A stretch of 63,101 nt of DNA, counting the filler, from Hausera hauseri (Eukaryota), in NCBI GenBank assembly GCA_046269625.1. It is 12 parts of 12 records of this genome, joined end to end, with 100 filler letters (N's around TTAATTAATTAA, not from the genome) between each part and the next. Parts side by side here need not be neighbours in the genome. Positions count along the whole stretch, not along the records: positions 33,893 to 43,004 come from JBJURY010459911.1; 11 more parts are not named here. The stretch is one strand, 5' to 3'. The notes below the pieces were generated by a model. That model saw nothing but the letters and a program-made list of their open reading frames with translations. It had not been told where the DNA came from and did no database searches. The number at the start of each line of letters is the position of its first letter. Position 1 is the first letter of the stretch. A program made the translations under genes and the position numbers. Positions 2,180 to 62,602 of the stretch are shown here, one piece after another.

Positions 2180-3190
2180 TTTAGTGTTCTCATCCTTGTG
2201 GATGGAACTTTTAAATATAAAAAGGATAAACACGTAAACACAGTCGAATAAAACGACTGAAACAAACACTGATAAGACGAGAAAACAATGAAAGCTATTT
2301 TTATTCAGTTCTCGCAAATCGTCCGCCGAGGCGTACGAGTCCTCGGTTGAGGAAAGGGCCCGGCCAATCCTCGGATTTCGGCGCGGACAAGTCGGAATGT
2401 CGTCTGAACTAAAATCAGTTGATGCTGGTTCAAGTCTTGTCGGCTCCAACCGGCGTCGACGGAGCGGTATGGGAACTTCGACTGGGCTCACTGTCCTAGC
2501 CTTCCGCTTGTCAGCAGTTCGACAGTCAGGAATCAACTGGCTCTCCGATGGAGCCAGCGACTCGAATAGCCGACCTGTTGCCGCCATCAGTCTTATAAAG
2601 ACTGGCAAGAAGGCGGAGGAGTCGAACAACCGTCGGCTATCTCTATCGGCGTAGAACCTCCGGAAATGCCCTGTCTGGAGGCAGTACGGCTCGTTTTCGG
2701 GCACTCCGCTGAGATGCCGCACGAAACGGCTCCGCTGCAGCAACTCTCGAACCGTACGATAATCAGAATAAGAACGGCACGGAGCTTGACGGTCCCGGAT
2801 GCGGTGTCATTTTTCGCGGGAGATGGTGTCTCGCCGGGCTGTGTGTTTTTGATCTTCTGATCGGGTTTGCTGTGCCGAGGCGGTACGCCTGTAGGTGTTG
2901 TTTTCCGCTCCGGCGTGTGTTGGTCGGAGTACCTTGGGAATGCGATACACCGGAATAGATACAGTCTTCCTTTCGCCAACTGTGGCGTCTGGTTGGATGG
3001 CTGCATCGACTAGGATGGCCCTAGTGTCTTCTGTGACTATTGGTTCTCCGGGCTTCGCTGTTCGGGTCGCCTGAGTTCTCGTTCCATTGCTACTGCTAGC
3101 GATATCGACTCGCATTGTTTTCGTGCTTTCCTTGGTGACGGATACACCGTTTTTCGATAATTTGGTTACTGTATTCGACTTTTCTGGCAT
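2180..3190 (-). pseudogene. LTR-encoded protein of unknown function (single frame, one in-frame TGA at 2807-2809, open to the LTR end)
   Basis: ORFs 2807..3190 and 2099..2743 are in the same frame; core LQRSRFVRHL..YADxDSRRLFDSSxFxPVFIRLMAA..FESLxPxExQLIP shared with 39429-40424. Confidence 0.8.
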
Positions 3191-3511
3191 GCCTGTAGAT
3201 ATTTTTTGAATAATTCTGTCTTTTCTTGAACTGTGGATTCAAACAAATGGATCTGAATCCACATATTTTGAATGTTGATAATTTTGCAAGTGCTGGTCAC
3301 TTTGGCACCTGTAATCCTGAATTTTAATTTTTCTTTTATAATTTATTATAGTTTCGTGTGGAACAAATTTTGGTGTTTAACGAATCCGTGATTTTGTTTC
3401 TGATATTTGATTTTGTATTTTTGTGTTTAATTGGGCATGAATTTGTGATATTAAGTGATTTAGTTTAACTTAAGTAGATTAAATATGTTTTTTGTAAGGT
3501 GGAACCTTACA
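2180..3511 (-). mobile_element. Solo LTR (~1.33 kb) of the element-B family, flanked by 5-bp TSD ATAAG
   Basis: Minus strand starts TGTAAGGTTCCACCTTAC and aligns end to end with 39077-40322, which is followed by a PBS; ATAAG at 2175-2179 and 3512-3516. Confidence 0.85.
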
Positions 3512-13109: not shown

Positions 13110-13630
13110 AATAGAATGTAATCACTCAGGCAGTGGCGTCCTTGCGCTGAAATGACACGGGCAAAAGACGTGACGGAGTGAGTATAGAAATGAGATTTAA
13201 TCCTATTTACTTGGAGGTTGTAGTCGTATAGGCGCTTAGAAAGAGTGCGCATGTGTTCTGCGTGTTGATATTCGTCTGCGGAAGCTATCAGAATGTCGTC
13301 GATATATGGAAATGCAAAAGGCAGATCTGAGAGTCTATATTTCACTGGAATGCTTGGGCAGCGTTGCGGAGTCCAAACGGCATGTAGAGATATTCGAAGA
13401 GGCTAAGTGGCATTGTTATTGCGGTCTTCTAAATATATTCTAGAGCGATTGGAATTTGATGGTAAGCTTTCTGCAGGTCCACGGTGGAGAATATGTTGCT
13501 ATCACCTAATCTACGAACAATGTCAGAGATCATCTGGTATCGTTAAAGCGTTAAGTCTGCGATAATCTCCGTACGACCGAAGTGTGCCGTCTTTTCTGGT
13601 ACCACGTGAAATGGTGAAGCCCAAATGACA
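13110..13630 (-). mobile_element. Gypsy reverse transcriptase fragment
   Basis: WASPFHVV, YMPFGLRNAAQAFQ, PYIDDILIAS. Confidence 0.9.
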
Positions 13631-15002: not shown

Positions 15003-17268
15003 GAGTGCCACTTATTTACATTGAAATATTAAAATTGTAATTTTCTTAGGTCTTACCCTCCTTATTTGTTCCATTTGATGAAAAAACACTAAATATGAAG
15101 TTTGAGAAGTAAATTTTAATATTTAGGGGTAGCTCAATCAACAAAAGGTTGTTAAAATTATGAAATTCCGACAAAAAATGAATTATGCAATTACTTGACA
15201 GCAATACAAATTATCCGACTGACAATAGACAAACACTTTGACTCAAAGTACATTTATTAGATGTATATGTATCAGTGTAACAGAAAAAATATCAGTCTTT
15301 CTTTTCAAGAGTATCAAACAGTCATTTTTTACTATTAGGGTACATTCTACGATGATCCTCTACATTTTGTAATAAGGATTGTAGTTGCATTTCATCATTG
15401 GTCATACGTCCACTGTACTCCTGAATGAGTGCCGCTGAACGTTCAGCATGATCATTCACTACATTAAGAGCTTTAATTGTTTCGCTAGCTTCTTTATAGT
15501 CATCTCTTGCCTCCAACGATGGTGGATCAACAGAAAGATAACTTACCAGAAGGTCTAACATTTGTAACAGTGACATGGACTTAGTTGTCACAAAATCTTC
15601 CAAGTTTTTGTTTTCAAATAATTGAAGGTCAATCGTCTTTTCCTTAAAGCAGCTTTGTTTGGCTTGTTTATCCAGGGCACTTATCATATATCTTTTTGTA
15701 GACACACTTTCACGACTATCGAAAAAAGCCAAAGAAACTAGTTCTTCGGTTAGATACCATAGATGTTTTGAAAGTTTCTTTACTACTGCCTTTGAGATAC
15801 TTGGATGAATAGTAGAATACTTGATCAACGATTTCATAAGCAACAAATCATTGTATGGAGCATTTAAAGCCTCGGATGCAGAGATCCTAGCTTTCATGTA
15901 TACACGAACAATGAAAATACACACATCGGTTAAACCTTTCTCTTCTTTGGGTGTAAGCATAAACTGAAATTTGAACATCCAGATCTTTAAACTATAAATA
16001 CATTTAGACATCCCGCGAGCATTGTGCATGGCTTTAGGTGACTTAAATCTCACACCTCTTTCAGGCGAGGTTCCAAGAAAAATAAGGACAAGTTCTACAA
16101 ATTCCTGATAATCTCCTCTCAGTTGACTGTGAGACTCTTCGAGGTACTTCATTCCAAACTTAATGGCATCATATTTTATATCCTTTTCAAGTTCAGAACG
16201 TGTTAATTGAACTTACCGTTTCGTGCTTGTTGGTGTCAATGAATTTCCAACAATCTTTGAAACGTTTGAATAGTGGAACTTCAGAAGATGTGGCTCCAAT
16301 GCACGCTTCAAACACTGAACCTATGGTCAATTCCACCACATAGTGCCTGCATGCTAAAGCCAAGAGTTTCTTTTCAAGCTTTTCTCTAATAGAACACATG
16401 CGCCAGCATTACGGCCAGTATTTGTACTAATTGTGTCAAAACACAGATCGGATGTTGTTTGATATGCCCTAGTCTTCAATGGCTTCAAAAACTGCTGCAG
16501 CTTGTGCCTCTCTTGTTCCAGATGGAAGCTTGGCAACGACCAGTAGCTGGGAAATTCCTTTTCCAGAAACTAGTAGAGGCAGGCGATCCACTATATCTTT
16601 TCCATTAAGGTCAGGAATTAATTGTCTGTCCCATTAAATAACAAGAGGTTGAAAATGAGCCTTTATGTCGGTTATTTTCTGAGCTCTTTGCTCCATCCAT
16701 TGCCAGCGAATTGACTCTCTAATTATTGTGAATTCATCAAAATTTAATCCAAAGCTTTTGGTGGTTTCCGCTATAACATAAACAGCCTTTCGATTTGACA
16801 CTTTTGTTCGATCCTAAGCCGTTGCAAGTTGTGGTGTAACTACAGTTTTTCGTCCCCGTTTTCTTTTCTGTCCCTTAGGTGATTTTTTGTTGGTTTTCAC
16901 CTCTTTTCCACTTACGTTTGTTGTGCTTGTGTTGCCATCAGATTCAGTATAAGTAGATGATTCAAGTTCAATTATAATAGAATCTGTCAACTGTCTAACT
17001 TTCTCTGTCAACTTTCGGGTGTTTACTTTTACTTCCCTTTGAAGACGCTTTTTCTCTCTGAGAGCGAGTATATTATCAACACCTATCATTGATCCACATC
17101 TACCTTTTTCCCGTTGTGCTATTAGAAAGTACTTGTCTTCTTGCAACATCAAAAATATCTTCTAATTCGGAAACAAAAGCTGACTCTTTACCTTGCTGCG
17201 TTGATGAAATTCTACCGTTGTTTTTCTTCAAAAGTCGCCACTCGTCGAATAACTTTTCAAGTTTCATT
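15003..17268 (-). mobile_element. DDE DNA transposon, probably Sola2-type, degenerate
   Basis: DRLP, CFDTISTNTG..GAC, LACRH, AMHNAR, HLWYL, VVNDHAER motifs; GAGTG terminus at ~15003. Confidence 0.7.
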
Positions 17269-22109: not shown

Positions 22110-23640
22110 ATGGCTCAACAACAACAACAACAACAACCACAAATAAATGTAACTGTTTTTGAGTCCTTGAACATATCCAAATACGACGGAGATCTTGCCG
22201 GATAATTAAAATTTCTAAAACTTATCAATTATTAAGTGAAGGTTTAGGCATGGACAATAAAGCTTATATTAGACGTATGCCGTTGTATCTAGACAATGTA
22301 GCATTGGATGTCTTTCAAGAATTAACACGAGATGAAAAAGCTAATTAGAAAAATTAACAGCTGCGCTTATCAAAATGCTAATGCCCACAGTAACTCCCAC
22401 AGCCCAGCTAGCTATATTACAGAAACGTTTTCAGTTACCCGAAGAATGCAACCACATGACCAAATTGCTAAATATCTTAAAAAATAGGGGATGAAATTTA
22501 TATTAGATCAGGATATATTAAAATATAATCAAGAAGGACGACTACTAGTAGTAGTACCAAAATGTCTAAGAAATGCAGTTATGTGGCAAGAACACGATGC
22601 TAATATGGCTGGTCACCCGTCTAGTAGAAAGACAAAGAAAAGAGTAAAGTTGAAATATTATTGGCCAACCTTAGAAGCAGATGTACAGAATTGGGTAGAT
22701 GAATGTAAAATGTGTGCTACTATGAAAAATAAAGGAGAACGCTATAAGCCCCCTTCGAAACTTTTACCTGAACCTAATAGTCCAATGGAATTCTGTGCTA
22801 TGGATTTTTCAGGGCCATTTCCTCTTACACATAATGGAAACAAATTTATTTTATTATGCACCGATTATCTTACGACTTATTCTATCTTAATTCCAACCAA
22901 AGATTTATTAGCCATAACTGTATCCAAAGAATTCATCAATAATATACTTTGTCAATTTGGAGCACCATGCTACCTACTAACAGATAGAGCCCCAAACTTT
23001 AGAAGTCATTTGTTAAAAGAAATAACTGACATATGCCAAACAAAAAGATTACTAACCACAGCATATCCACAATGTAACGGAAAAGTGAAACGACTAAATT
23101 ATACTGGTCAATGTCTCCTATCAACAATGATAGACAAATCTCAGAAAGATTGGGATGAGCATTTAAGAGTGGTCCAATTTGCAATTGCAACCACCCCAAC
23201 ATCTAGTAAGTATACACCATTCGAATTACTTTATGGTAGAAAACCTCTTCTACCATAAGATATACAGCTGTTACCAGAAAAAGATATGCCTATTAATACA
23301 GACGAAGAAGTCACTCATGCAAGCGTAGTACATAGTCTTGCCAATTATTGGATTAAAGCCAAACAGGCTATACCAGAATATAAAGAAACTTATAAAGAAC
23401 AATATGATAAGAAGAGTAAACCTCATAATTTTCAACCAGGTGATAAAATAACGGTACATTATCCGGTTGACAAACCAGGCAAATCTTTAAAGCTAACTCG
23501 CACTAGGAAAGGACCATATCTAGTAGTAAAATCTACCCCAGAAAATGTCTTTATAGAAAAGGGTACTGGCAAGAAAACCAGGATAGAATGTGTATCTGTG
23601 CAGAGGCTAACTAAAGGACCAAAAGAAATCATGGCTCAAG
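22110..23640 (+). mobile_element. Gypsy gag fragment joined directly to integrase (PR-RT-RH deleted)
   Basis: Gag-like MAQQQ..KYDG..PLYLDNVALD; then GHPS..YYWPTL..CKMC, MDFSGPF, TDRAPNF, TPFELLYG, KGPYLV. Confidence 0.9.
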
Positions 23641-24656
23641 AGGAACTCAAGTATTCACTTCGATCATATAAAAAAACAATTATTAAACCAGCTTTTAGTC
23701 TAGAAAAAGTATTATTTATAGTAATAATGTTCGGATTAATTTTATCAACAGTAAGTCAAACATTTGTGACTGAACCAGTAAATGCAAACCTAGAATTAAA
23801 AATAAAATTAGTTTGGAAATACGAACCTGACTTAATTGATGGTTTGCTCGAAGGAGAGCCTGTATTTTCAAAAATATGATATTTACTAATTCCATCTAGT
23901 AAAAAGGAAATATGGTTACTTACAAAAAGGTGTAAAGTACCTCTCTTGAATGAGGTATGTCTACTACAACTTTATTATATTCCAGTAGACGGCTTGTTGA
24001 CCAAACAAGACGAATTTGAACCCATAGCTAGACAAATTCACGTAGAAAAATAGGACATCTTTCTTCTTTACTCAAGATAAAGATACGGAACGTAGACTAA
24101 TACATAAAGTACAACTAAAAAGACCTACATTAAATTTAGACGTCGATCTGCAGATCACATATTTCCCAAAGTTCCTTATACATATATCAGGTAAGGAAGC
24201 TCTGCACATTCATGTACATATGTCAATTCCGCACTTTTTTGAAATTATAATACCAACAACTAGTTCAATTGCAAGCACCGGACCTACAGTCGCAATAAAT
24301 AAGAAAACCTTATGGCTTAAACCTCAAGTCGTTCACAAATTACCATCATTCTCAAATATAATTAGAGATACGTACATCGAATTTAAGAATCTAATTCCAG
24401 CCTCTCAACTAATAATGATATCATGTATAGGAAAGTACCATATTATATATTCAATTATTAAAGAGAAGGAGAGAACTACAAGATGTTCTAACCTTCAATC
24501 AGATGAAGAATACTTAATAATCTTTGCACAAGGAAAACAAACAACACATAATAAAATTAGAACACATACAAAAATCCATTCAGTCAAAAATATGCAACTT
24601 CAGCTAATATATCAAACAACAACAGATAGGGGATACTATATATGACCCAAAACCGT
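23640..24656 (+). pseudogene. Env-position ORF downstream of integrase, with a signal-peptide-like start
   Basis: KVLFIVIMFGLILSTVSQ is in frame with integrase; coding continues through stops and a frameshift to ORF 24220..24645. Confidence 0.5.
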
Positions 24657-33792: not shown

Positions 33793-34563
33793 NNNNNNNN
33801 NNNNNNNNNNNNNNNNNNNNNNNNNNNNNNNNNNNNTTAATTAATTAANNNNNNNNNNNNNNNNNNNNNNNNNNNNNNNNNNNNNNNNNNNNCATTCACT
33901 TAAAACAATCTATAAACTATTATGATCATTTAGAAGATATTCTAATAAATTTTTTGATTAAATTATAACCGAAGAAATATTCTAAAATACAATCGGCGAA
34001 TAATGTTGCAATTTGATTTAATTCTGCGAAATTACGTAATGGGGTTACTGTGTAGCAGGTTGCACTATCGATTTCGGGAAGACCATAAATCAACAGTTCC
34101 CATTTTTATCTGTGTTGCGTTTAGTTTCAATCAATATGACATTAGATCGACATAGTTTTCTATTTGTTCGGGATAGTTGTTGGAATAAAATCTGTTCGTC
34201 GGACCACAATGAACCTATGTGGTTCTGGTAATGTTGGCTAATATTGGCTCTTCGAATTAATTCAATTTTACATTGAGACGAAATATGATTGTTGTCTGCT
34301 AAAATCGACTCCAAGAATTCAAGCGTTGAATTTAACCACTGTTTGAGATTTTTCACGATTATTTCTGAATTTACAGCTTTATCACTGTTATTTAATATTC
34401 TTTACTAATTCCTCAATAAATTGATGAATGGGTTTATTCTTAGACGTAATGAGGTTTATTAACCAAATCTGATTTTGGTGAAATAAGCAAATGATTCTAA
34501 ATAACAATTCAACTCTTTGACTAAGTTCTGGTTTTTTCTGAAGAATTTTTTTGTTATCCGAAT

Positions 34564-34711
34564 TGATAACGGAATACAAATTGGCATTCTCAAAGCGAAA
34601 ACTCGGGGCCTGTCTATGCGCCCGACGCGCCGGCAGCGGAAAACCGGCCGTGCCCAACCGAATGGGACGGAGTGCAACGATAGACACGGACACCACATCA
34701 CTCCCCCCCCG
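34564..34711 (-). promoter_or_regulatory. Polypurine tract and 3' LTR of element A (LTR starts TGTGGTG at 34697; far end uncertain)
   Basis: Minus strand GGGGGGGGAGTGA followed by TGT, downstream of the integrase. Confidence 0.7.
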
Positions 34712-35189
34712 TGGCAAAGTTGAAAGTACAAAGAACAAAAGATAGAGAGAAAAAAACGCAAAATGAAAAGTGTGTGTTAGTTGAGCGTAGTGTGTATAAG
34801 GCGTTGAATACCTTTGTCTGATTTTTCCCTAGTATATTGGCTGAATGTGACTCTGCGTATTGTGCGTTTGTGCAATGTGCCTGTTTGCAGAGATTAAGGT
34901 TTTGGAAAAAAATTAGTAGATTTTAGTGTAGATGTTGTGTCGTGCGCAGACGAAGAGGAAGATGAAGAAGGTGACGAAAACGGTGAAGAAAGAAGTGTGA
35001 TTGTTGAAGAATGAGGATTAAAGATATTGAGAAGCGTGTTAGGAGACGAAGGAGGGATGGAAGGTGTAGTGGCGGAAAAGGAGGAGAAGAAGAGGTTGGA
35101 GTAGAGATTGGAGTTGTGTTAAGTTAAGGAGTAGAAGAAGAAGATGAAACAGAAGGAGTGATAGTAATAGAAGGAGGAAGTGTAGGAAA

Positions 35190-38100
35190 TTATGAAGCAA
35201 GACTAGGCGCGAAAGAAGAAGGTGGAAATGGTGTAGCAGTAGGTGTAGTGATAACAGGTAGTGGAGGAGTAAGGAAAAAAGTTGAAGTGTCGGTTGGTAA
35301 GGTGTCATCGACGAAGAAAGCAGGCTTTAGATTAATGATGTGTACTGTGAAGTCTTTACCGTCTTTGGATATTATGGAGTTATGCGAGTTTAATTGTAAA
35401 AAATTGTAGTGACCCAGGTACCGTGGTTGAAAACCGCAAGGCGCTTGATTCTTCAGCCATACGAATTTAGCCGTGTATAAATCATCAGGTAGGTATGTTT
35501 TATCGTTATGGAGTAACCTGCAAAACGCGTCCTTGCTGACCTGGACGAAATGATTTTGTGCCGTCCGTTTCGTCTTGTCTGTGGGAGTGTCGTCTAGGGC
35601 GGTTAGTTCGAATAATGACCGGACAGGAGCTCCAAATAATGCTTCAGTAGGTGAGCATCCTGTAGAGTTGGACGGAGTGTTGTGCCAGCCAAGCAGAACG
35701 AACGGAAGAAGATTAGTCCAACTACTGTTGGACTCTGTAAAAATTCTTAGCGACGTTTTCAGTGTGAGGTGGAAGCGTTCTAGGAGGACATTCAATTAGG
35801 GATGATAAGGCGTTGTATGAATGTAATGAATCCCCAATCAATTAACAAGGGATTTAAACAGGTTGGATTCAAATTGTGGACCTTGGTCCATGATGATGAA
35901 ACTAGGTGATCCAAATCTGCTAATCCATGTGCGAATGAAAACGTCCGCTATGGTGTCGGTGTTTGTGCTCCGCAGATGGATGGCTTCTGGCCATCGAGAG
36001 GAACGGTCCATCATGGCGAGGATAAATTGATGACCGTTGTCAGGAGGAAGAGGTTTAGCGATGTCGATATACACCGACTCGAAACGCGATGTGCAGGGAA
36101 AGTGGAATAGTAGTAGCTTTAAATGCTTAGTAATTTTGTATTTTTGGCATGCCACACACTCCTTAATCCATGCCTGCAAATCAGAATGCATTGATGGCCA
36201 TGTTATTTGTCGATGGAGGTGAAGAAAAGTGGCTTTGGCACCAGGATAGTGTAGTGAGTGCACATGATGAAATGCTTGCCTGTGCAAGGAAGGTGCTAGA
36301 ATGATTACTGAATGACCTAATTTGGATGTGTTCAAAGCCACGCCGTCAATGATTGTGCAAGATTTAAAAGACTTAAGCATGTCTGGAGGTGGCTGCTTTT
36401 GTTGAAGTTGTTCTTGCGTAAAAATTGGAGAAAAACTTATCGAACTAACTGACCTTGACAAAAAATTAGCAACAAAATTGCTAACTCCGTTTATATGTTT
36501 AATATCGAAATTAAATGTCGACAAATATGATATTTGGCGTTCTTGGCGTGTGGAAGGGTGTTTCATGGTCATGATGTTAAATAAATGCTTATGATCAGTT
36601 TTCAGAGTGAAATGGCGAGCGACAAGTAGGTGTAAAAAATACTTTAGAGCGAGCACGATTGCCAATAGTTCTCGATCAAACGTGGAATATTTTGTTTCAG
36701 GTGTTGTTGGTTTGCGAGAAAAGAATTCCAAGGGTGGATTTTCTCCATTGTAGATCTGAAGAAGTACAGCGCCTACAGCAGTGGTTGACGCATCTGTGGT
36801 GAGGATGAGCTCTGCATCAGGCATGGGAAAGGCAAGAATATCAACAGTTTTAAGGCCTTCACGTAGCCTGTCGAATTTGTCAACCAATTCAGGTGTCCAC
36901 TGAATTGGTTGATGTTTTTTACCGCCGCTTAGGTGTTTGAACGGAGCCGTTAATTCTGAGCAGTACGGGACGTATTTATGCACAAAATGTAATGTGCCAA
37001 GTAAGCTACGCATTTCGGTGGTTGTACATGGCAAATGTATGTTTTTAAGGGCTTCGACTCGGTCTGATTGTGGAGATTGACCGTCTGGTGTGATGACGTG
37101 ACCTAAGAAATTAATGCGTCTCTTGAAAAAGTTGCATTTGTCGAAGTTAATCTGTAGGTTATGGTGGTGAAGGCGTTGGAATATTGCGCGAAGGTGTTCT
37201 TCGTGCTGTTTGGTTGAAGATGAAACGACTAGAATATCGTCTATATAAGGGTGTGCAAACGAGAAATTTTCAAGGATTGAATCGATGTACCTCTGAAAAG
37301 TTTGTGCAGCATTCCCTAAACCGAATGGCATAAAGAGGTATTCGTAGAGGCCAAAAGGAGTAGTTACTGCGGTTTTTTCGATATCTTTAGGTGCTACCGG
37401 TATCTGATGGTAGGCTTTAGCAAAATCTATGGTCGAATAGATGGTGGTGGAGTTAAGGCAAAGTAGGATATCCTTGATGAGTGGCAAAGGATACGCGTCC
37501 ATGATTGTCAGGTTGTTAAGCTGTCGGTTGTCACCGCATGGTCCGAAGGTACCGTCCTTTTTTTGAACAACATGTAATGGTGATGACCAAGGAGATTGGA
37601 ACGGCATACTATGCCAAAACGTTCTAGCTCGAGAAATTCGGCTTCTACAGCCGGTCTACGGCGAGATGACAGAGGCCGTACCTTTTGGCGTATTGGACGT
37701 TTATGCTGTGTTACTATATGGTGTAAAGTGCTGTTGGCAGGAGTGAAAGTATGGTCTTTTTTAAGGACGCGTGGACATGATTTGTTGATAAATTGCTGTA
37801 TCGTTGCATGTAGCTGTGAGAGATTTGGTGAAGGTGGTGAAATGGCTTAAGTGGTAGCAAATGCAATTCGTGAGTTGTTAGGCGATGTGCAGTCAAGTGG
37901 TATTTGGTGTAATATGGTTCAATTGAAGATGGCTTTGGATGAAGTTACTTCGCTGAATGGAACAGTGTTGGTGTGAATACCACACTTATCGACATCAAAT
38001 TTCGATCGCATATCAATGTTATTGTTTAAAAATTTCCGAACTGAATTATTATTGTGAAAATTCAAATTATTGTTATAAAAAATCGAATTATTCGCTGACT

Positions 38101-38500
38101 TTTTTAAGATAGACTTCCGTATTCCGGTCGACCGCGCGTAAGTCGAAATACTATTAATATGTCCAGAAATGTCGCCAACGGTGCCTCTCCTCAAACATCG
38201 TTAAGTGTAGTCCACCAGTAGATTGTAATATGAGAGAAAGTCAGATCCAAGGATTGCCGACTGGACGTTAGCGACTGTGAACGTCCAGCGGAAAGGCGCA
38301 GAGAAATCGGGCAAAGTGTAAGATAGTGTAGACGTACCCGAGATGTACAGCGTCTGGCCTGAAGCAGTATATAAAGGCTTAAGTTTGAATGGAGAATTTT
38401 GTGTAGGAAAGGTTTGCGGTAATAGAGAAATTGCTGCCCCTGTGTCTATGAGAAAGTGAACAGATTGAGTCATAAGGGCAGTGATTGCTGCCTTTAGCGT
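35190..38500 (-). mobile_element. Element A pol: protease, spacer, RT, RNase H, integrase (589-aa intact core 35838-37607)
   Basis: FLIDTGAAISLLP, SPWSSPLHVV, PYIDDIL, LTTDAS, TDHK, DQGPQFES. Confidence 0.97.
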
Positions 38501-38583
38501 GAAAACTGCGAAAGAGGTGTGTCGGCGTTCCGAATGTGAAAGAGTGCCCTCGCCAGAGTTTGCCGTGACTTTTGGCGGCGAAC

Positions 38584-38860
38584 TTAGTTTTTTGGAAAAA
38601 ATGAACTGGGACGACTGTGAGAAATGAAGGTAGTACGTCCGTTGTTCGTGTTAGATTTGAATGTACAGTCAGGTATACATTTACGTGCTTGATTTTTGAA
38701 TCTTGCAGGGTAAATGCAAACAACGGTGTCGGAGGAAAACTCCTTATCATAAAATTGGCATCCCAGGCAGCACCTCTGAGCATTAGCGTTGAATCTGCTG
38801 TGATAATAGCTGATCGACGAACGCGCTGGTGATGGTGAGCGGTTTTGTGACGTAGATAAT
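38584..38860 (-). mobile_element. Element A Gag C-terminus with two CHCC knuckles; capsid region missing
   Basis: SYYHSRFNANAQRCCLGC..VCIYPARFKNQARKCIPDC; AAAAAAC slippery site at 38587-38593. Confidence 0.8.
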
Positions 38861-38864
38861 TCAT

Positions 38865-39074
38865 TCCACCGCGGATACGGAGATGCACGTTGAAGCAAGC
38901 GTGATTGGAAAAGGAATGTACAATTTCATTAAGGTGTATAATAGCGCCGTTTAGAGTGAGATAGGAATCTGAGGAACCAAGGAAAGAAGAAATGCGGGTC
39001 CGAAGGGTGGGGATGTGTGGGTGTGTTCTGTGGAGGGCATATACGTGTTTGTTGTTATAAAAAAAGAAAATGGA
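38865..39074 (-). CDS. Ubiquitin-like domain of element A (ends LRIRGG|M)
   Basis: SIFFF..TLRTRISSFLG..YLTLNGAII..CFNVHLRIRGG aligns with ubiquitin (QIFV..NVKAKIQDKEG..RLIFAGKQL..TLHLVLRLRGG); ~70 aa. Confidence 0.8.
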
Positions 39075-39076
39075 GG

Positions 39077-40322
39077 TGTAAGGTTCCACCTTACGAAATA
39101 TTAAAATTTACATTAAGACAAACCAAATCAGCAAAATGAAAATTTTTTACTAATAACAAAATTTAAAATTCAAAAACCTCAAAATTTAAATAAATTAAAA
39201 TACCTAAAATAAAATAAAAAAAAATAGATAAGTTGTAAAAAAAACAATAATCACGGACTCACCAAACATAAAAATTTGCAATTAAAATAAATCAGGATTA
39301 CAAGTGCCAAAGTAACCAGCATCTGTAGCCAACAAAAAATCAAAAAAACAAAATTTGTGGATTTAAACTCACTTGTTTAAATCCACAGTTTAAAATCTGA
39401 ACAGTTTATTCAAAAGAAAAAAAACAAGATGTCCAAACCATCGGAATGCAAAAATGGCAAGATGTTGGCAACAAAAGCAAAACCTGGGAAACCCATTTCC
39501 ACGAAAGCTGCAAAGGCTACACTAACTGACGTCGCCGTCCCTGAAAGGAATATGCGGCTCACCCAAAACTACCGGATCTCTAAGCAAACCGAACCAGATC
39601 CGACGATGATACGAGACCAGGATGCCATGAAATCCGGCGATTCAATCACCCGCGAGGCCGCCAAGGTACCCCAACCGATACTTAATGAACAAGGGAATAC
39701 AAACGGCCGCTGCGTCGCCTCGACAAAACAAACCCGATCCGAAGACCGGAGCCGTACCACACGGCGAGCCAATTGTCAAAGAAGCCGCCAAGCTCCGTGC
39801 TGTTCATATCCCGATTATATGACGGTGTGAGAGTTCTTACAACGAAGCCGCTTTGTACGGCACCTCACCGGGTTGTCCGAGGGCGATCCACATTGCCTCC
39901 CTCACGGACATCTCCAAAGGTTATATGCCGACGGAGACAGCCGACGGCTGTTCGACTCTTCCACCTTCGTACCAGTCTTTATAAGACTGATGGCGGCGGC
40001 CGACCGGATGTTCGAGTCACTGGTTCCTTTTGAGAGACAGCTGATTCCGAACTGAAGAATCTCCGAATTACGGCGGATCAGGGCGTACAGCTCCAGCTCT
40101 GACGATCAGCCGGCTCCACCCCGTCGACTCATCCAAACGGAACCGTCCCTATCCAGTACGGACGAATCGCACACCTCGGCGGACGATTTACGAGAACCTA
40201 ATAAACGTTACTCTCGTTATTTTGTTGTCTTCCTTACTGTTGTTTCAGTCGTTTTATTCGACTGCATTTACACTCTTTTCCGTTTTTTACTTGCAAGTTT
40301 TATAAAATGTGAAAGCTCTAAA
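39077..40322 (+). mobile_element. 5' LTR of element B (abuts the 5' region of element A)
   Basis: Starts TGTAAGG, AATAAA at 40200, PBS follows; homologous to solo LTR 2180-3511. Confidence 0.88.
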
Positions 40323-40427
40323 ATGGTGGCAGCGGTTACCGCATTCACGCCCTATAACACAAACGCAGCCGTTAAAATAAATCCGGCTCAAACACTTCAC
40401 ACCGTCATTGATAACAATCAAGCTTAA
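39429..40427 (+). pseudogene. LTR-encoded ORF of element B, read through U5 and PBS (in-frame TGA at 39828 and 40053)
   Basis: ORFs 39429 and 39873 share a frame, which is open again from 40056 to 40424; homologous to 2180-3190. Confidence 0.8.
40324..40336 (+). promoter_or_regulatory. Primer-binding site, tRNA-Leu type
   Basis: TGGTGGCAGCGGT is complementary to the ACCGCTGCCACCA 3' end of metazoan tRNA-Leu(AAG/UAG). Confidence 0.85.
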
Positions 40428-40761
40428 ATTCACACAAGTGCCGTCGAAATTAATCCGGTCACACATTCGTGCATCACTAAACATGATCACGTTATACCCA
40501 CTAACAGTTGTATCATCAAAAGCAACTGCAACCAGAAAATTACAACGCGTAATATCAAACAAGTGCCAATATATTCTAGCACTAACACACGCGTCAACAC
40601 CGTCAAATCGGAATACAAATCCGATTATTCGAACCGTGCCAAAATAGCACACACCAAGCGAAAATTCACTATTTAACAATTCACCCAATCGTCAGTCGAT
40701 TAACCTAGACAACAGAATTTACCATGGTGAAACAACATCGACCGACTCTACGCCAAACGAA

Positions 40762-41885
40762 GTGCAACTCATTGTACAAAACTGACATCAGACGAAAGCT
40801 CATCGCTTCCCGTCGACCCTAACTATGTCGGGAATGCTGTAAGTTTTAAACCAACAGTATCCCGAGCATACATTTTCATATAATGGAAAATTATTATGCA
40901 AGAATAATTGCGTAATCAATAAAATTTTGGTTGGCAATACCACCATACTGGCGACTCCGAAACTAAAAGGACGCGTTGACAACCTTACGCCTGACAAAAG
41001 AGAAACTGCTTTAGCAACACAGGCCAAACCACCAAAATTAGCATGTCCAACCTTTTTTATAGGTTCGAACGGAACGCCATTGAAGTGGTTTTATGTGTTT
41101 GAAACATGGGCTACACAATGCAGCATCACTGGCCAACTAAACAAGGCCTTAACACTCATTTAATACCTGCTGCCAACAACGCTTGCAGCCATAACGGATC
41201 TGGACACGCTACTGTCAGATCAAAAGCCGTTCGACATAATCAAAGCAGCCAAGTGCAAAGCATATCTGCCATCCCAACAGGACCAGTTCAACTTGATCTT
41301 CACCAAGCGACAGACAGGGAATATAAAACCGTCTGCTCTGCTTTACAAGTTACGCCCAGACTTGAGCAATGCTGAGTTGGACCTCCGCACCAACCAACAC
41401 ATACTACGGCGCTACTTCCTAAGTAGTTTGCCCAATCAAATTTAAGCGGCATTGGTGCTATTACCGCCCGATACCACTTTGGACGATATGACATCTAAAG
41501 CCGACAAATTATACGAGTGCATTAAAGGCACCGTAGAATCCGCACCAACGGAAAACATACACTCCGTCACGGCGACCCAGTAAAATCAGCTGGACATAAT
41601 TATCGCCGCAATGCAGGCACTTGTAACGCACAAGAATCTTCCAGCCAGGCACAAACCGTCATCTCGGTGCCAATCCCCCAAGAGGAAGAAAGGCAAATTT
41701 TCCAAAATTTGCCACTTCCACACACGATTCGGCGAATCCGTCTATAAATGCTACCATGGTTGTCAATTCGACAACCCATCTGCAAACATAAAAATGCAAG
41801 ATACTTGCATTTATCGTAATCATTTTGGTCCAGATGCAAAAGTCTGTCGACCCGGCTGCAAATTTCACAAGCCGTCAAAAACTAA
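40762..41885 (+). mobile_element. Element B UBL-Gag (UBL 40762-40974, capsid, two CHCC knuckles), with premature stops
   Basis: VQLIVQ..FSYNGKLL..NTTILATPKLKGR in frame with KLACPTFF..KWFYVFE; ICHFHTRFGESVYKCYHGC and CIYRNHFGPDAKVCRPGC. Confidence 0.82.
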
Positions 41886-41989
41886 ATGGGACCAGGCGAC
41901 TAACGGCACGTCTTCTGGAAACTCAATCACCATAACTGCCGTATACAAATAGCGAAATCATTGTAGATGCTATTTTTACCCTCGAGGTG

Positions 41990-42612
41990 GAGCCACTAAG
42001 CTCCGACATCTCGAAACAGCTCTATTTTTTAATCGACACAGGTGCAGCTCTATAGCTGATACCTAGCGCATACGCTAGACCTACGCTGGTCTCGCATGAA
42101 TCACTCAAAGCTGCCAATGGCACGCGCATGTCAACCACAGGTACACTGTACCTACAATTTCACATACAAGGCCGACCATACGCTTGGTCATTCATATTGG
42201 CCGATGTCATACAACCAATCTGTGGTTCTACTTCCTAGATCACTACGATTTCACAGTTGATTGCCGAAATCAACAACTCACCAGCGGAAGCAATCCACTG
42301 TCTCCACCAGCATTCACTCTAACCATAAACGTAGTCACGGGTATAAAAATCGCAAATCCCATTGACATCGCAACATTGCTGCAAGCGCAATACCCCAACC
42401 TGTTGAAACTCTCAGCACAACCAACACGGAAAGAGGTGAAAACATCACACTTTCTCGTTACATCATGTGATCGACCGATTCTGCAACCCCGGAGGGAGCT
42501 TGACCCTGTCAAGCGAGCAGCGCGGAAGCCGAATTCCGACACCTAGAAGAAACAGGCATCATACGCCGCTCCACATCACCATGGGCATTACCATTGCACA
42601 TGGTTCCAACGT
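41990..42612 (+). mobile_element. Element B protease and RT start (truncated)
   Basis: FLIDTGAA, LKAANG, GIIRRSTSPWALPLHMVP. Confidence 0.88.
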
Positions 42613-42614
42613 CA

Positions 42615-43004
42615 TAATTTGCAGCCAGGACAAATGTGACGAATGGATAGGTGGACTTGAACAAATCCATTGGTATGCCATTGCTGATGTTTTTCTTCAG
42701 CAAACCCATGTTACGCACAGTAGATTGCATATATGTGAAAACAAAATCATTAGACTCAATTCTTGTTTGTACGTCTCAACAAAATCCGCATTCCGGCCAA
42801 ACTGATGTAATTCACATCGCTATGGGTAAACGTTACCGAATCGGTCGTATTACTGCCCGTTTGTTGAACAGTCGTTTGAAATGTAACGAAAACATATTTC
42901 GGTAATCGCATACCACAAAACAGTGCATCTTTGTAAAACGTAGTTGAACCTTTCGGTATGGTGTAAAAGATGAGTTCTGTGCGTTGTATCGGTTAACAGG
43001 CATT
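42615..43004 (-). pseudogene. Polinton/Maverick (adintovirus-like) major capsid protein fragment
   Basis: A(Y)PIQRTE..TIPKG..DALFCG.RLPKYVFV..FTH.DVNYISL and ..YMQ..NGI..F..YPFVTFVLA match the Polinton MCP C-terminal jelly-roll pattern. Confidence 0.75.
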
Positions 43005-48111: not shown

Positions 48112-49430
48112 CTAGAGGCGAATACAGTTTTTTTGGATTGGTGAGTTAGAACGGTTACTGTTAGAGACATTGGGACGTCTATTAGTGGTGCAGTTTTTGT
48201 TAGTTTTATAGTTACAGCCAGAAATACAATTCCGAGAATTAGATCCGAATTTTGCATGATAGATGCAAATTAAGTTATCCGAGTGTAGATTCGATGAATA
48301 ATATCTACACCCTAAAAAGCATTTATTTGCTTTGTTGTTACATTTGTTGTGGTAATAACATATGAATGACCGCGTTGGTGACGATGTTCGACTTTTGGAA
48401 GGAAAACGTGTTCGATAAGGCGAGGGAGCATTCCGTCGATGTAAAGAAAGGTCATTCAGCCTGTCATTGATGGTGTTGATTGTGCGTTGTATTGCTGCAT
48501 TTTCGGCTCGTAATTGGTTCATCTGGTGCTCAATGGATGTATGTCGTTGGTTGTCATCGTTTGTAATAGCGGCTGATATGATAGGTTGTGATTGGATTTG
48601 TAAGACTTCGTGTGCTTTATTTGCCAATTCAGCCAGTTTATCTAAGGCTGTAGAATCTTCAACAACGGTAAGTAAAGCCCTGATTTGAATGGGTAACGCA
48701 TTAAGGAAATATCGTTGGAGTAGATCCGGATTATGTTCCTTGGTGACACCTAAAGTACGTAAGTGAGCCAACGATGTACGTAGGAAATCACTAAGTTTTT
48801 GTGTCCCCATTGCGTTTTCTTTAAAGAAGCGCTGCATTATTGAATAAACTGATGGTTCTGTCTGTTTTAACACAGCATCGAACAGTTGGGTATAGAGGTA
48901 AGAGTGTTGAAAGATGTCCAGTAAGTTGTGGATTGAGGCTTTTATGGAATTTGGTAGAAGGTAAAGTAGATTACGGGCTTTGGATAACGAGTCTGTAATA
49001 CTGTTGGACTGTAACCAGAGTTGATGAAAGTGGAGCCAAGTTTTGCTAGACTTATTGTCTATAAAACATTCAGAACAATATTGTGAAGTACTGATGATTT
49101 TTGTAAGAATTTGTATCGGTTGCAGTAGGTGGATGGCTTGATTTGGGGTAGTAGAGAATGGATTTCGATTTTGTGGTCACCTTATTCTTGACGTCACTGG
49201 TTGATGGAGAAATCATACCGTCGCGGATTCTAGGATTGATATGTATACACAGATACTCATGTGAGGCCATGATGTGTGGGTGGTCGACTAAAATGAAACC
49301 GTTGTGAGTCAGGTAGAAATCGCTGTAGACGGAGGTATTATGAATGATAGCGTATAGTTGTGATGTTTCAATACGTTGTCTGACATGTACTATTTGTATT
49401 AGATTATTATTAACATAAAAATAGAGGGGG
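48112..49430 (-). mobile_element. Element C UBL-Gag (UBL ~49217-49428, capsid, two CHCC knuckles, AAAAAAC slippery site at 48127-48133)
   Basis: PLYFYV..SDFYLTHNGFIL..IHINPRIRDG|M; FLNALP..LAELANK; ICYYHNKC..KCFLGC and ICIYHAKFGSNSRNCISGC. Confidence 0.85.
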
Positions 49431-49539
49431 AATGATGGTGGTGTACTGTAAACCGGGCAGTGTGATATATCGATGTGGTTCTTCGAAGGTAAGAGAGTTG
49501 CTGTGTGTTGATGAATATGTCCGGTCTGTGGACTCACTA

Positions 49540-50299: not shown

Positions 50300-51490
50300 A
50301 AAAAATTAGTTTCCAATTCTTAAATCGATATTCTTTTTGAATTGAAAGTTGTTTCGTTTTATAACAAAGAAAATGAATAAGAAGAGGAAATAATAGAGAA
50401 AACAAAGAAAATGAATAAGAAAATAAAGAGAAGAAAGAATAAACTTCTGAGGCAAACAATTATTGGCATCTCAGGTGGGGCACAAATTGAAAATAAAATA
50501 AATGATGCGATGAGATTACAGAATAAAAAACAATTGAAGAATAAAGATGCGAATCTAGTCGATTCAATGAATTTATTCATCCAAGTGCCGACTATATTTT
50601 CTGAGATGAAATATCACCTTTACTGTGAATTTAATTGTTTTATGGATACGAAAATTAATAATTGTATACTGGCACAATTTCGGAATCACTTTGAAACAGT
50701 TGAAATACCTGGTGTTTCGTTGAGAGTTACAAATGATCTATATGAAAACTCAAAAGTTGTACTATCAGCAATAGAGAAGAATTTCAAAGATTTCTTGATT
50801 CCCGGACTAAAATTATCACAGTTTGACGCCGATATGAATAAAGAGGGAATTACTAAAGAAGCAAACCTACAATCAGGTATTTTTGTTCAGCTTCACGGAA
50901 TTGAGATGAATATAAATGATCTCGATAAACACATCTAGACTGTGAATATTCAAATCAAATCAGATATGAAAGAAAGAATGGATTTAATCATGATGATTGA
51001 ACGGAGTTTATAAAAATGGAATATGTCTGACAAACGAAAAGAAAAATTTAAAGGATATTTCCCTAAGAAAATAACGGTTTTAAATGGTGCAAGTGCTGTT
51101 AGGACAAAACTTTGCAATGACATCAAAATGCTTAAGCAGAATCGAAAATCTGAAGATAAATTGGATGTTATTGAAAATGAACGGCTTATATCTCATATTG
51201 CTTCATTGAAAGCAGAACTTGATTCAAGAGATCGAATTTAGAAACATGAAAATGTTGTATAAAGAAAATAAAATAACAGGTAATGCAAATGGATTCTTTG
51301 GGAAACAGTTGCTTTTGGACGAAATTTCAAATTTAAAAGATGGATTAAAAGCACTGAGTACGAAACATCTTACTTCAGAATCTGAAAGACAGAAAATACA
51401 ATTAAAATTTGACAAAATTATGGTCGAAAACGCGAAAATCATTGACTCCCTTCAAAACGAAATTAGTACAGGTAAAATAGAAAAGGCAAA
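50300..51490 (+). pseudogene. Decayed coiled-coil-rich coding region fused to the kinesin motor fragment
   Basis: Co-oriented K/E/N-rich ORFs 50411, 51023, 51219. Confidence 0.5.
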
Positions 51491-51494
51491 TATT

Positions 51495-52176
51495 GATAAC
51501 ACCGATTTTCTTGTAAAATATTCGCTCGATGAAATATACAACGAAAAAATTTATGACCTGCTTGATCACGAACAGCAAAATTTGAACTTAAGAATAAATT
51601 TGGCCCAGGAAGTTTTGATTGAACTTCTAACAGAGGTTGTTATTAACAATCCAACTGATGCAGAAAAGTATTTGAAACGCGGTCTTACAAATCGCCATGT
51701 CGAATCTACCGCAATGAACAGAGAGTTCAAGAAGTCATGCAGTGTTTACTATCGTTTTAGAATCGTGTGTAAAAGATGGAGATATTGATAATATAATCCG
51801 TAGCAATTAATATCTTGTGGATCTGGCCGGAAGTGAAAAGCAAAAAGATACGAAAACCGAAAGGATGCGTCTGCGAGAAGCAGGTCACATAAACAAGTCT
51901 CTGCACATTTTACAAAAAGTCATCGGTTTGATTGTTAATAATTTTAATGGGAAAGCGATGCACATGCCCGTTTGTAAGTCAAAATTGACGTTTATGCTAA
52001 AGGATGCCATCGGCGCTAATTCTAAAACGTGTCTTATTGCCTGCATCCATTCATCGGTAAGTTATCTCAGCGAAACTTTGTCAACAATCGATTTTGCTTC
52101 ACGAGTTAAAATGATTAAGAACAAAGCGAAAATTAATATCGATGCCTGTTGGAACAATGTCGCAACATTTAAATAA
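51495..52176 (+). pseudogene. Kinesin-12 (KIF15-like) motor C-terminal two-thirds; intronless, frameshifted, no P-loop
   Basis: EIYNEKIYDLL, NRHVESTAMNRE/SSRSHAVFTI, DLAGSE, EAGHINKSL, SKLTFMLKDAIG, ETLSTIDFASRVKMIKNKAKIN. Confidence 0.9.
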
Positions 52177-60245: not shown

Positions 60246-60626
60246 TCAGTTGGTTAAATATGTTAAAGCTTCAACAATATTGCCTTTGTATTCTCGTAAG
60301 ACACGTTCTGCTTGTGTCCGTGAAATCTCCATTTCTTGAACAATGTAATCCACATCATCTTTATTGATCTTCACTTTTGACAGCTCTTTCTCTTTTTCAT
60401 GCTTTGCCTTTGCTTCCTTGTTCTGTCTGTCACTAACAACTCGCATAGCATCTTGAATATCTTGGGCAGCTATTTCCTTCTCTTCTACATAATCAGTTAC
60501 TTTTTCCAGATCTGCTGCACCGGCATCATGTTTTGCTACTTTTTTGCTTTTTGACTCAGATTCTGCATCATTGTCTTCGACTTCAGGTTCTTCTAAGTTT
60601 GCATGAGGTGTCTCGTTTGTCGCCAT
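60246..60626 (-). CDS. HYPK: Huntingtin-interacting protein K, intact and intronless (126 aa)
   Basis: KHDAGAADLEKVTDYVEEKEI..ELSKVKINKDDVDYIVQEMEISR..AERVLRE.KGNIVEAL. Confidence 0.95.
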   Translation of the reverse strand: MATNETPHANLEEPEVEDNDAESESKSKKVAKHDAGAADLEKVTDYVEEKEIAAQDIQDAMRVVSDRQNKEAKAKHEKEKELSKVKINKDDVDYIVQEMEISRTQAERVLREYKGNIVEALTYLTN

Positions 60627-60945
60627 CTTGTTTTCTTCCTGCTTCACTGAATTAGGTATATATTTCTGCGGGTAGGCCTCTGTTTTCTTCCTGCTTTTCG
60701 ACTGTGTGATCTTTTTCAAGGCTAACAGCCAATTTATAGCGAATAACCATTGTTTCGGGGTCTCTGGTAGGAAAACCGCAAAAGATGCTTCGTCATCTAA
60801 AGCTAGTTCAAGATTTATGGATCCGGATACACATTTATGAAACAAACCAACCATATTATTTCAGTAAACACCCTATTATGTAGGGTTTAGAAAAATAGTC
60901 TATAGACTCATTATATTGCTCCTCTCCACGGAAATCTTTAGTAAA

Positions 60946-62602
60946 TTTTTTTTTTTTTTTTTTTTTAAAGTTTAATAACCCACATCATACATGAAGTGAC
61001 TGTACAACACAGATGAGACATTTTGTTACGGAGAGCATTTACAAAAACAAAAGCATAAAAAGCATATTCCATTAAAATGTGTTACATAAATGAGTGTCGT
61101 CCTGTGACATTCGGACAAATGTATAAGTGTCTAATATACCCTTAATTAATTTTCACATGTGACTGGCAGTTAATAGACGGTTTCCCATTCGTAGGTGATT
61201 GATAACGGTGGGTACTTGTCTTCCGGCTCGTCTGGTTCTAACGCCTTCCAGATGAATACCCCATTGTCATCCGTATATCTGCATACTTTCCTCCAGCCCG
61301 GTTTTTCTTGCTTTATGAGCGTCCTTTCATCTGGCCTTTCTTTGGCGAGGCTGTTTCTTTCCTTGTCGATGAGATCTTCTTCGGAGCTTGTGTCAGTCAT
61401 TTGAGAGTCTGCATCAGCTGTTAGTTCATGAGTATGACCATCGGTTGATGGATCTTCGTCGTCCTCGTTTGTTCTTGATCTTGTACTGTTGTTTGTTGTT
61501 AACCTATGTTTGGCTGGTGTATGTTCTTTCGGTGGAGAATTCCTATGGCCTCTTTTCTTCTTCTTGTGAGTGTTTCCCTTCTTGGAGTAAAGGGCTTCTT
61601 CGTCGAGATCTTCCTTGCTCTGTTGATCATCCGGATTTTGCTCATCTGGGTGCTGTCTTTGCCTGGGTGGGCTGTTGGCGGGGATGATTTCCAGGTGTGG
61701 ATTGTCTTGGTTTAGTGGTTGGGGATGATTAGTTTTGGATTGATTAGCCGGGGGTTCTTTTGGTTGAGAGTCTGCTGCTGCTGTTTGTATGGACGCTTTC
61801 CGAAGATTTTTACGATTTTGCGGGCACTGGTTTGTCCAATGGTCATCTTTGCCACATATCTGGCATTGGGTTCTTCTGCCGGGAACAGTAATCAATATTC
61901 TGCATTTTATCCTGTTGCTATGACTTGCTGCGTTTAGATCCAAATAGTGAGGTACGGCTTTTTTCGGGACGCACGTAAATGTCCATTTATCGTTGTGTAA
62001 GGGGACAGGCAGTGGTTCTGCTTCTGGATCTCCAGAGATAAAGAAAGCCAGCTTCTTGGCGGTCTCTTTTTTTAAGGTTGGAGGCAGCCAATGCATTGTT
62101 ACCTTGGATCTGTCTTTTTCGTAGTGTTCAATGCTGACGGTGATATGTGGGTTTGTGTAGTTCAGGCTGATTCCATGTAGCTTTGAATAGGCTTGAATGT
62201 GAGCTGATTGTGTCAGTGTTGCATACCACTTGAATGGTTGTTCAAATCTGTACAGTGTTCTGAGCCCATTTGGGCCCACTCCCTCTAGCGCCATGAGTAT
62301 GCTTGCCATTTGGGCGTATGTCATTTGACTGGCTTGAGGTCCTGTAACCTTGAGAAGCAACGTGTTGGGCCTGTGAAAGGACGCGCCTTCCAAAGACTCC
62401 TTCACGTCAATGTCGAAGGTTTCAATCTGTGCTGGGAGTCCACTCATTCTGAAAAAGTCACGATCACAAACATTTAATATTAGTGACACCAATCTTAGTC
62501 TAGAAACACCGAAATGTTTCCGGCCATTTTTGTGTTAATTTTTTGATGAAGTGCAAGCCAAGGGCTTCACCCTGGTAGCGTAAAATCTTCCGAAACACCA
62601 AA
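60946..62602 (-). mobile_element. ORF1-only non-LTR retroposon (HAL1-like) with poly(A) tail and 16-bp TSD
   Basis: GGAAATCTTTAGTAAA at 60930-60945 and 62603-62618; 21-nt poly(T) on plus strand at 60946-60966; ATTAAA signal on the element strand. Confidence 0.9.
61170..62447 (-). CDS. L1/Tx1-like ORF1 protein (~425 aa from ATG 62447) with CCHC knuckle
   Basis: VTMHWLPP, VPHYL, ITVPGRRTQCQICGKDDHWTNQCP, charged disordered tail; no stops. Confidence 0.85.
   Translation of the reverse strand: MSGLPAQIETFDIDVKESLEGASFHRPNTLLLKVTGPQASQMTYAQMASILMALEGVGPNGLRTLYRFEQPFKWYATLTQSAHIQAYSKLHGISLNYTNPHITVSIEHYEKDRSKVTMHWLPPTLKKETAKKLAFFISGDPEAEPLPVPLHNDKWTFTCVPKKAVPHYLDLNAASHSNRIKCRILITVPGRRTQCQICGKDDHWTNQCPQNRKNLRKASIQTAAADSQPKEPPANQSKTNHPQPLNQDNPHLEIIPANSPPRQRQHPDEQNPDDQQSKEDLDEEALYSKKGNTHKKKKRGHRNSPPKEHTPAKHRLTTNNSTRSRTNEDDEDPSTDGHTHELTADADSQMTDTSSEEDLIDKERNSLAKERPDERTLIKQEKPGWRKVCRYTDDNGVFIWKALEPDEPEDKYPPLSITYEWETVY

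Follow-up and report, generated by a model that had tools for sequence, protein, structure and literature searches.

Why should a Ty3/Gypsy retrotransposon carry, ahead of its Gag, a domain that resembles ubiquitin down to a terminal di-glycine? The locus that raises this question lies in a stretch of 63,101 nucleotides from Hausera hauseri (hereafter the window), which consists of 12 contigs of 4-9 kb each, with spacers (N/TTAATTAATTAA) between the pieces. The domain is found in three elements: A and C both lie in piece 8 (33893-43004), and B lies in piece 9, on another contig. By their predicted pol order (protease-RT-RNase H-integrase), the elements are Ty3/Gypsy. Their parts are as follows.

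38865..39074, minus strand: ubiquitin-like (beta-grasp) domain of element A, ending LRIRGG (from HMM and fold model)
38870-38865, minus strand: di-glycine codons of the element A domain (from sequence)
38856..38864, minus strand: Met after the GG and approximate junction of the lost linker, capsid and coiled coil, with a frame change (from sequence and relatives)
38584..38811, minus strand: C-terminus of the Gag of A, with two decayed CHCC-type knuckles, AAAAAAC and the gag stop (from sequence)
38204..38650, minus strand: aspartic protease frame of A (Pfam gag-asp_proteas at E 8.8e-4, which does not reach the curated cut-off)
35190..37655, minus strand: pol of A, with RT, RNase H and integrase in Gypsy order (from Pfam)
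34690..34710, minus strand: polypurine tract (34710-34701) and probable start of the 3′ LTR of A at about 34700 (from sequence)
39077..40323, plus strand: 5′ LTR of element C, starting TGTAAGG, head to head with the domain of A (from sequence; homologous copy at about 2200-3511, minus strand)
40323..40335, plus strand: primer-binding site of C (TGGTGGCAGCGG), overlapped by the ATG that opens the leader frame (from sequence)
40759..40974, plus strand: ubiquitin-like domain of C, in the frame of its Gag, with two internal stops and a broken di-glycine (from HMM)
40975..41925, plus strand: Gag of C, with linker, DUF7041-type capsid, two knuckles and three stops (from sequence)
49217..49438, minus strand: ubiquitin-like domain of B, with a broken di-glycine and a frame change in the linker behind it (from HMM)
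48133..49086, minus strand: Gag of B, with capsid, coiled coil and two CX2HX9CX3C knuckles (from sequence)

A preliminary description of this DNA had pointed to a 70-codon segment in element A, SIFFF...TLRTRISSFLG...YLTLNGAII...VHLRIRGG followed by Met, and this segment is present at 39074-38865 on the minus strand. When the window was searched in six frames with an HMM built from the domains of 28 relatives (described below), the domains of A (i-E 2.3e-9), B (2.1e-6) and C (1.9e-5) were the sole matches with i-E < 1e-4, the next standing at 0.064. With an HMM that leaves out P0031, a near-canonical member, the domain of A scored 41.9 bits, compared with a maximum of 15.1 bits in 500 shuffles that held the last six residues fixed. 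Judged by these scores, the similarity of the element A domain is more than chance. Taken singly, the domains of A, B and C gave no ubiquitin match in Pfam, and a phmmer search of PDB sequences with the domain of A returned three chance matches and nothing relevant. In the ESM Atlas, the same domain had scores of 0.91 with an unnamed cluster and 0.89 with one of ubiquitin, which we take as a lead only.

The beta-grasp fold expected for this segment was borne out by its structural model. Built with a 30-row alignment that includes P0031, the model has a pLDDT of 78.6 and consists of two strands, a helix and three strands. Foldseek returned ISG15, ubiquitin and SUMO as top matches, with 28 matches at E <= 0.001 and a TM-score of about 0.76 (0.72-0.78 across the top five). 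An independent aligner (VIA) gave a Z of 10.2 and an rmsd of 1.9 over 73 residues, and its list is filled by ubiquitin-fold domains. The fold scores tie among families (FUBI, Z 9.5; SUMO and midnolin, 10.2), and in this model fold alone does not separate ubiquitin from FUBI or SUMO.

Element A itself is a broken copy. Pfam recognized its protease frame, RVT_1, RT_RNaseH, Integrase_H2C2 and rve, in that order, and pol is open over 37655-35838, with stops beyond. The knuckles lie at 38811-38665 (minus strand), and AAAAAAC lies at 38593-38587, ahead of the gag stop, where we infer a role in -1 frameshifting. From the di-glycine to the first zinc knuckle there are just 53 nt, including a frame change. 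The corresponding interval measures 856 nt in B, 245 residues in C and 211-302 residues in the 28 relatives; A is therefore without a capsid. The relatives' homology to the knuckle frame of A starts again at about 38856. On the other side of the domain, the first codon derived from A is a Ser at 39074, and from 39077 onward the sequence is the 5′ LTR of element C, oppositely oriented. Because this LTR lies directly upstream, the leader and start of A are absent from the contig. Contigs of two sequencing runs covered 30 of 30 bins of piece 8 at 85% likeness, and among the run-contig matches listed for this piece we found no joint across the missing capsid. With only about 480 nt from the end of pol to the polypurine tract, A is also without env. 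Copy A is a dead relic, with its domain intact, its capsid gone and its 5′ end displaced by element C. It had been called the best-preserved copy, which is right for the domain, the only one of the three in the window with both glycines, but not for the gag, which is the most broken.

In element C, the domain, linker, capsid and two knuckles are read in a single frame of the raw DNA, with five stops overall, and the Gag is 73% identical to that of the relative P0005 over 412 residues. Element B has its parts in the same order, with the change of frame in the linker. The fusion of domain to Gag claimed for A is thus not seen in A, where the domain is out of frame and the capsid lost, but it is found in element C and in relatives. 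The description of Gag as CsRn1-like agrees with the knuckle CX2HX9CX3C, which is present twice in B and as the first knuckle of C and is decayed in A. No copy is complete in the stretch, which holds the polypurine tract and 3′ LTR start of A and the 5′ LTR and primer-binding site of C. The LTR of C is ~1.25 kb long and has a homologue in piece 1, a solo LTR whose flanks, inspected for the 4-bp target-site duplication of the CsRn1 clade, read CTTAT if its end is set at 2180; this end is unsure, as homology to the LTR of C stops at 2206.

Both LTR copies start with a short inverted repeat, TGTAAGG...CCTTAC (39077-39095, plus strand; 3493-3511, minus strand), and both hold a decayed sense-strand ORF (39381-40427, plus strand; 2099-3238, minus strand). 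In a 270-nt block of this ORF, mismatches number 19, 9 and 37 at codon positions 1, 2 and 3, and the LTR-internal ORF appears to have been under selection. A protein encoded within an LTR would be unusual; the piece 1 frame had no match in Pfam. Next to the piece 1 copy, a pol fragment at 1-1911 (plus strand) belongs to a fourth related element, with 65% DNA identity to A, and a fifth RT fragment lies at 13115-13623 (minus strand).

Relatives were sought with a profile built from the Gags of B and C (318 positions, with the domain left out) in 1.84 billion representative proteins. This Gag-only profile gave 3359 matches at E <= 0.001, of which we analysed the best 150. Forty of these form a double CHCC knuckle group (39 with both knuckles; P0007 ends after the first). 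Gags with at least 40 residues ahead of the capsid were considered evaluable; 30 of the 40 double-knuckle Gags qualify, the other ten starting 13-23 residues ahead of the capsid (four) or inside it (six) and so not being judgeable. In every one of these 30, [LIVA]-x-Gly-Gly is present 7-44 residues ahead of the capsid. The single-knuckle relatives make up 110 of the best 150, with any GG at that place in 5 of 26 evaluable Gags, and none of the 110 scored above 4.8 bits with the domain HMM. The tandem double CHCC knuckle (39 of the best 150) marks the lineage that carries the ubiquitin domain. A DUF7041-type capsid occurs in 24 of 30 members.

These relatives are predicted proteins, several of them visibly spliced onto pieces of host genes. 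When each of the 28 full-length domains was scored with its kin left out, it exceeded the highest score among 100 shuffles that kept the last six residues. This test covers the domain body only, with the GG serving as anchor for the domain ends. Conservation of the di-glycine, predicted for intact copies, is seen in 30 of 30 evaluable relatives; beyond the decayed B and C, the sole exception among apparently intact proteins is P0164, a further relative in a four-member cluster that came from a second search and whose domain ends LPAG (Ala-Gly). A word-seeded search with alignment A5 kept 5 of 7996 candidates, one of them new, and one with the Gag of B kept 0 of 1338; the MAFFT alignments A1 and A2 were left out because they misplaced the domains.

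In a capsid-only tree of 63 rows, made by a quick method and including 27 single-knuckle Gags, 32 domain-bearing Gags fall into one branch (SH-aLRT 98) together with four of undetermined status, P0068 and P0075, and the domain-bearing set forms one side of a branch with support 61. This topology allows a single origin of the domain-bearing set. P0068 and P0075 are single-knuckle Gags that group with the lineage, and their predicted proteins begin too near the capsid for a domain to be visible. Modelled at full length, P0021 has a separate domain (pLDDT about 89) that matches ubiquitin with an rmsd of 1.5 over 79 columns; behind it come a disordered stretch at 103-134 and then helical capsid domains. 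Every match listed by the structure search has the ubiquitin fold, so the capsid was assigned from Pfam DUF7041 and the knuckles. In the ESM Atlas, P0018 matched DUF7041 clusters at 0.84 and no cluster combining both domains. A search for the relatives' DNA context found it in none of the viral contigs (0 of 1 and 0 of 40 stretches) and in 0 of 95 prokaryote genomes, and a metagenome scan gave 7 loci with RT identity of 27-39%.

Across the lineage, median identity is 22% for the domains and 33% for the Gags. On ubiquitin numbering (27 members, with P0031 left out), Gly75/Gly76 are kept in 27 of 27, an invariance that is partly built in because the GG anchored the domain ends; the Leu73 site is L, I or V in 26 and the Arg72 site R or K in 21. 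Core positions remain hydrophobic across the 27 domains. The Ile44 site is T or S in 19, Val70 is kept in 2 and Lys48 in 9, with some domains lacking any lysine, and the Arg74 site is R or K in 10 and the Arg42 site R in 3. Since GG is kept, Leu73 and Arg72 are mostly retained and Ile44 and Val70 mostly lost, selection appears to act on the tail and core rather than on the receptor-binding patch. The residue after the GG varies among the 28 relatives (Ser 10, Ala 4, Thr, Met and Asn 3 each, Gly 2, and Asp, Gln and Val 1 each) and is never Pro. The Met remarked on in A is therefore real in that copy but, at 3 of 28, no trait of the family. A Lys in this place was seen in the partial P0027 only; in SDE2 the residue is a constant Lys.

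The family profile, which includes P0031, aligns gap-free to ubiquitin 2-76, with E-values of 1e-10 to 1e-12 for single-ubiquitin chains, and its best 60 of 536 PDB matches are all ubiquitin, ubiquitin fusions or engineered variants; a profile made without P0031 still gives the domain of that protein 44.7 bits. Pfam ubiquitin was matched by 8 of 30 members, even at E up to 1, and no SDE2 family was among the 25 listed of the 33 families matched by members. These sequence matches make ubiquitin the most likely donor, rather than SDE2 or FUBI, whose type of ubiquitin-like domain had been suggested for A.

One member stands apart in its domain. Residues 177-252 of P0031 are identical to human ubiquitin at 55 of 76 positions (72%), with I44 and K48 kept. 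Its Gag is 66-67% identical to those of P0057 and P0032 and its domain only 25% identical to theirs; it nests among these two in both trees, and its GG-to-capsid spacing is 16, compared with 13-18 in its kin. This pattern suggests that fresh host ubiquitin replaced an older domain in P0031, though a gene-model chimera is possible.

What lies ahead of the domain is less uniform. The leader of C, with its ATG on the primer-binding site, matches P0005 at 140 residues ahead of the domain (P0005 residues 117-237 match 40287-40655). Of the 28 predicted proteins, 11 contain a peptide that matches the primer-binding site, 65-169 residues upstream of their domain; one of these matches, a weak one of four letters, may be chance. 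The domain is for this reason often internal: its location ahead of the capsid, as first described, stands, whereas its placement at the very N-terminus of Gag does not. In 12 related pairs with capsid identities of 51-94%, the 60 residues ahead of the domain share only 15-37% identity, suggesting a translated variable leader; leaders are uncertain because they come from gene models, some of them joined to host fragments. We rejected an internal start at the Met behind the GG, as Met is found there in 3 of 28 only. A conserved transmembrane leader was also rejected, with 19-residue hydropathy of at least 2.0 in just 7 of 28, which T-rich DNA behind the primer-binding site could explain. The gag start codon overlaps the primer-binding site in C (40323-40335, plus strand), P0005 and P0018, and other relatives read this site in another frame.

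The primer-binding site of C is TGGTGGCAGCGG, not of the tRNA-Trp type, and peptide traces in relatives fit TGGTGTCAGAAG; we take both to be tRNA-Leu types. Those of A and B were looked for in the stretch and not found. In the available text of PMC2582038, the CsRn1 clade (CsRn1, PwRn1, AgCR1-14) is characterized by a CHCC knuckle, a gag/pol overlap of the kind that goes with -1 frameshifting and a tRNA-Trp primer-binding site; the main text of that paper does not contain the word 'ubiquitin'. The elements studied here share with this clade the CX2HX9CX3C knuckle, the gag/pol overlap, the DUF7041-type capsid and the PR-RT-RH-IN order, but differ in their tandem knuckles, the ubiquitin domain with GG before the capsid, the non-tRNA-Trp primer-binding site of C and the long leader ORF. 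Because C departs from the clade in its primer type and the trees were made from Gag sequences, we name them CsRn1-like rather than placing them in the clade.

We propose that ubiquitin was captured into the gag ORF of a CsRn1-like Ty3/Gypsy lineage with two knuckles, and that the lineage has retained it as a processing cassette. In predicted proteins and models, the precursor runs from leader through ubiquitin-like domain, Gly-Gly, disordered linker, capsid and coiled coil to two CHCC knuckles. A host deubiquitinase would recognise the fold and the hydrophobic-x-Gly-Gly tail and cut after Gly76, and this cut would free Gag and Gag-Pol, with a defined N-terminus, from the variable leader translated through the primer-binding region. 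To our knowledge, deubiquitinases (DUBs) do not cut ahead of Pro. Most USP-type DUBs contact the Ile44 patch and Arg42/Arg74; because these are largely lost, a DUB acting here would need to be permissive. Precedents are found in cytopathic pestivirus polyproteins, where ubiquitin is a processing signal cut by cellular hydrolases (PMC8310069, available text), and in SDE2, which is cleaved at its di-glycine by DUB activity (PMC5131917, available text). By this analogy and from the sequence pattern, we consider it probable that host deubiquitinases cut after the GG and so free Gag from its leader.

Several other readings share part of this evidence. The domain may stay uncut as a folded N-terminal module, be it matrix-like, an aid to solubility or expression, or a degradation signal that limits Gag. 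We hold this to be unlikely: the models do give a stable, separately folded domain, the surface residues read by many DUBs are lost and P0164 ends Ala-Gly, but no other feature is as well conserved as the di-glycine in these domains of 22% overall identity, and uncleaved ubiquitin-like domains usually lose theirs. The degradation tag, one of the roles first suggested for A, fits poorly with Lys48 in 9 of 27 members and with lysine-free domains. Less probable again is that the released leader-UBL-GG serves as a ubiquitin mimic that is conjugated to proteins or jams host E1, E2 or DUB enzymes in transposon control. E1 enzymes activate a free C-terminal GG, the Arg72 site is R or K in 21 of 27, the fast divergence of the surface resembles a host-parasite interface and P0031 carries a 72%-identical ubiquitin; however, E1 recognition needs much of the ubiquitin surface, the surfaces differ so widely among members that one shared host partner is unlikely, and the leader would remain on the N-terminus.

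That the GG serves the element's own aspartic protease as a flexible cleavage site, or is a mere hinge, strikes us as very improbable. The element does encode a protease, and a disordered linker lies behind the GG, but the motif coincides with ubiquitin 73-76 in an alignment without gaps, and retropepsins typically cut between hydrophobic residues. Recruitment of ESCRT for budding or vesicle export, also raised early for this domain, has a slimmer chance still. Ubiquitin fused to Gag can replace late domains, but this engineered activity needs L8 and I44 and works with the two glycines deleted (PMC2958808, available text); the lineage shows the reverse, with the GG kept and the Ile44 site T or S in 19 of 27, and A is without env or room for it. 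Finally, the domain might be an artefact, either a chance similarity in decayed DNA or a set of gene-model chimeras between ubiquitin pseudogenes and gag. Some predicted relatives are indeed chimeric far upstream, and A alone has no Pfam or PDB sequence match to ubiquitin. Raw DNA nevertheless has the domain at an equal place in three elements, in the Gag frame in C; the spacing is constant in 30 independent clusters, and the 4.8-bit ceiling of the 110 single-knuckle Gags is of a piece with this. We regard an artefact as hardly credible.

Processing of LTR retrotransposon Gag is normally credited to the element's own protease. If deubiquitinase cleavage after the GG is true, this lineage offers a natural case of a host DUB step built into a Gag precursor, lineage-wide, and a parallel to the pestivirus ubiquitin insertions fixed over long evolutionary time. 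The approximately 30 natural ubiquitin variants (22% identity, with core and tail kept) would also form a panel for the minimal needs of DUBs. A broader version, in which capsid maturation depends on the host DUB, the cassette is renewed by re-captured ubiquitin and the released UBL-GG acts as a mimic or blocker of host ubiquitin enzymes, has in our judgement a low probability.

Several known systems resemble this arrangement in part. The pestivirus insertions (BVDV CP1, CP Rit) are likewise captured host ubiquitin in a polyprotein, with upstream residues attached; according to the available text of PMC8310069 those captures are recent, strain-level, near-identical and ahead of NS3, whereas those here would be old, lineage-wide, at 22% identity and ahead of the capsid. 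SDE2 (PMC5131917, available text) and FUBI-eS30 (FUBI, PDB 8bs3) similarly join a divergent UBL-GG to a downstream protein, but they are host genes, and the residue after the GG varies in our lineage. The ubiquitin-ribosomal fusions (eL40, eS31) and polyubiquitin are the best sequence matches of the family profile and the likely donor; in these, ubiquitin is near-invariant and comes first, in contrast to the drifted surface and preceding leader of the lineage. Engineered Gag-ubiquitin chimeras also place the two in one chain, but are artificial, C-terminal, I44-dependent and without the GG (PMC2958808, available text). Transposons with OTU or Ulp1 proteases (Ginger and others; PMC2836005, available text) tap the ubiquitin system as well by carrying a protease, whereas this Gypsy lineage would carry a substrate of that system.

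We found no report of a ubiquitin-Gag fusion in a natural element in the literature searched, with Repbase (the likeliest place), GyDB and Dfam outside the search, and the ubiquitin-bearing Gag lineage is apparently undescribed. An NCBI record was present for 0 of 30 representatives looked up. The feature may have been overlooked because of these absent records and of weak single-sequence matches (Pfam, 8 of 30).

Several other features of the window are worth recording. A 296-codon ORF at 15322-16212 (minus strand) looks like a fragment of a DNA-transposon gene and has no significant Pfam match, and a divergent kinesin motor fragment (Pfam E 2.5e-16), which may stem from another organism than piece 12, lies at 51210-51788 (plus strand). 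In piece 12, an intronless HYPK frame, possibly a retrocopy, occupies 60249-60860 (minus strand) and is 91% identical, over 62% of the frame, to a protein of the land snail Bradybaena similaris; beside it, a zinc-knuckle ORF at 61170-62534 (minus strand) resembles ORF1 of non-LTR elements. On the HYPK match we read piece 12, at least, as gastropod DNA, and piece 8 probably has its origin in the same animal. At 22344-24645 (plus strand), the integrase of a different Gypsy-type element precedes frames that contain a hydrophobic stretch and might be env-like.
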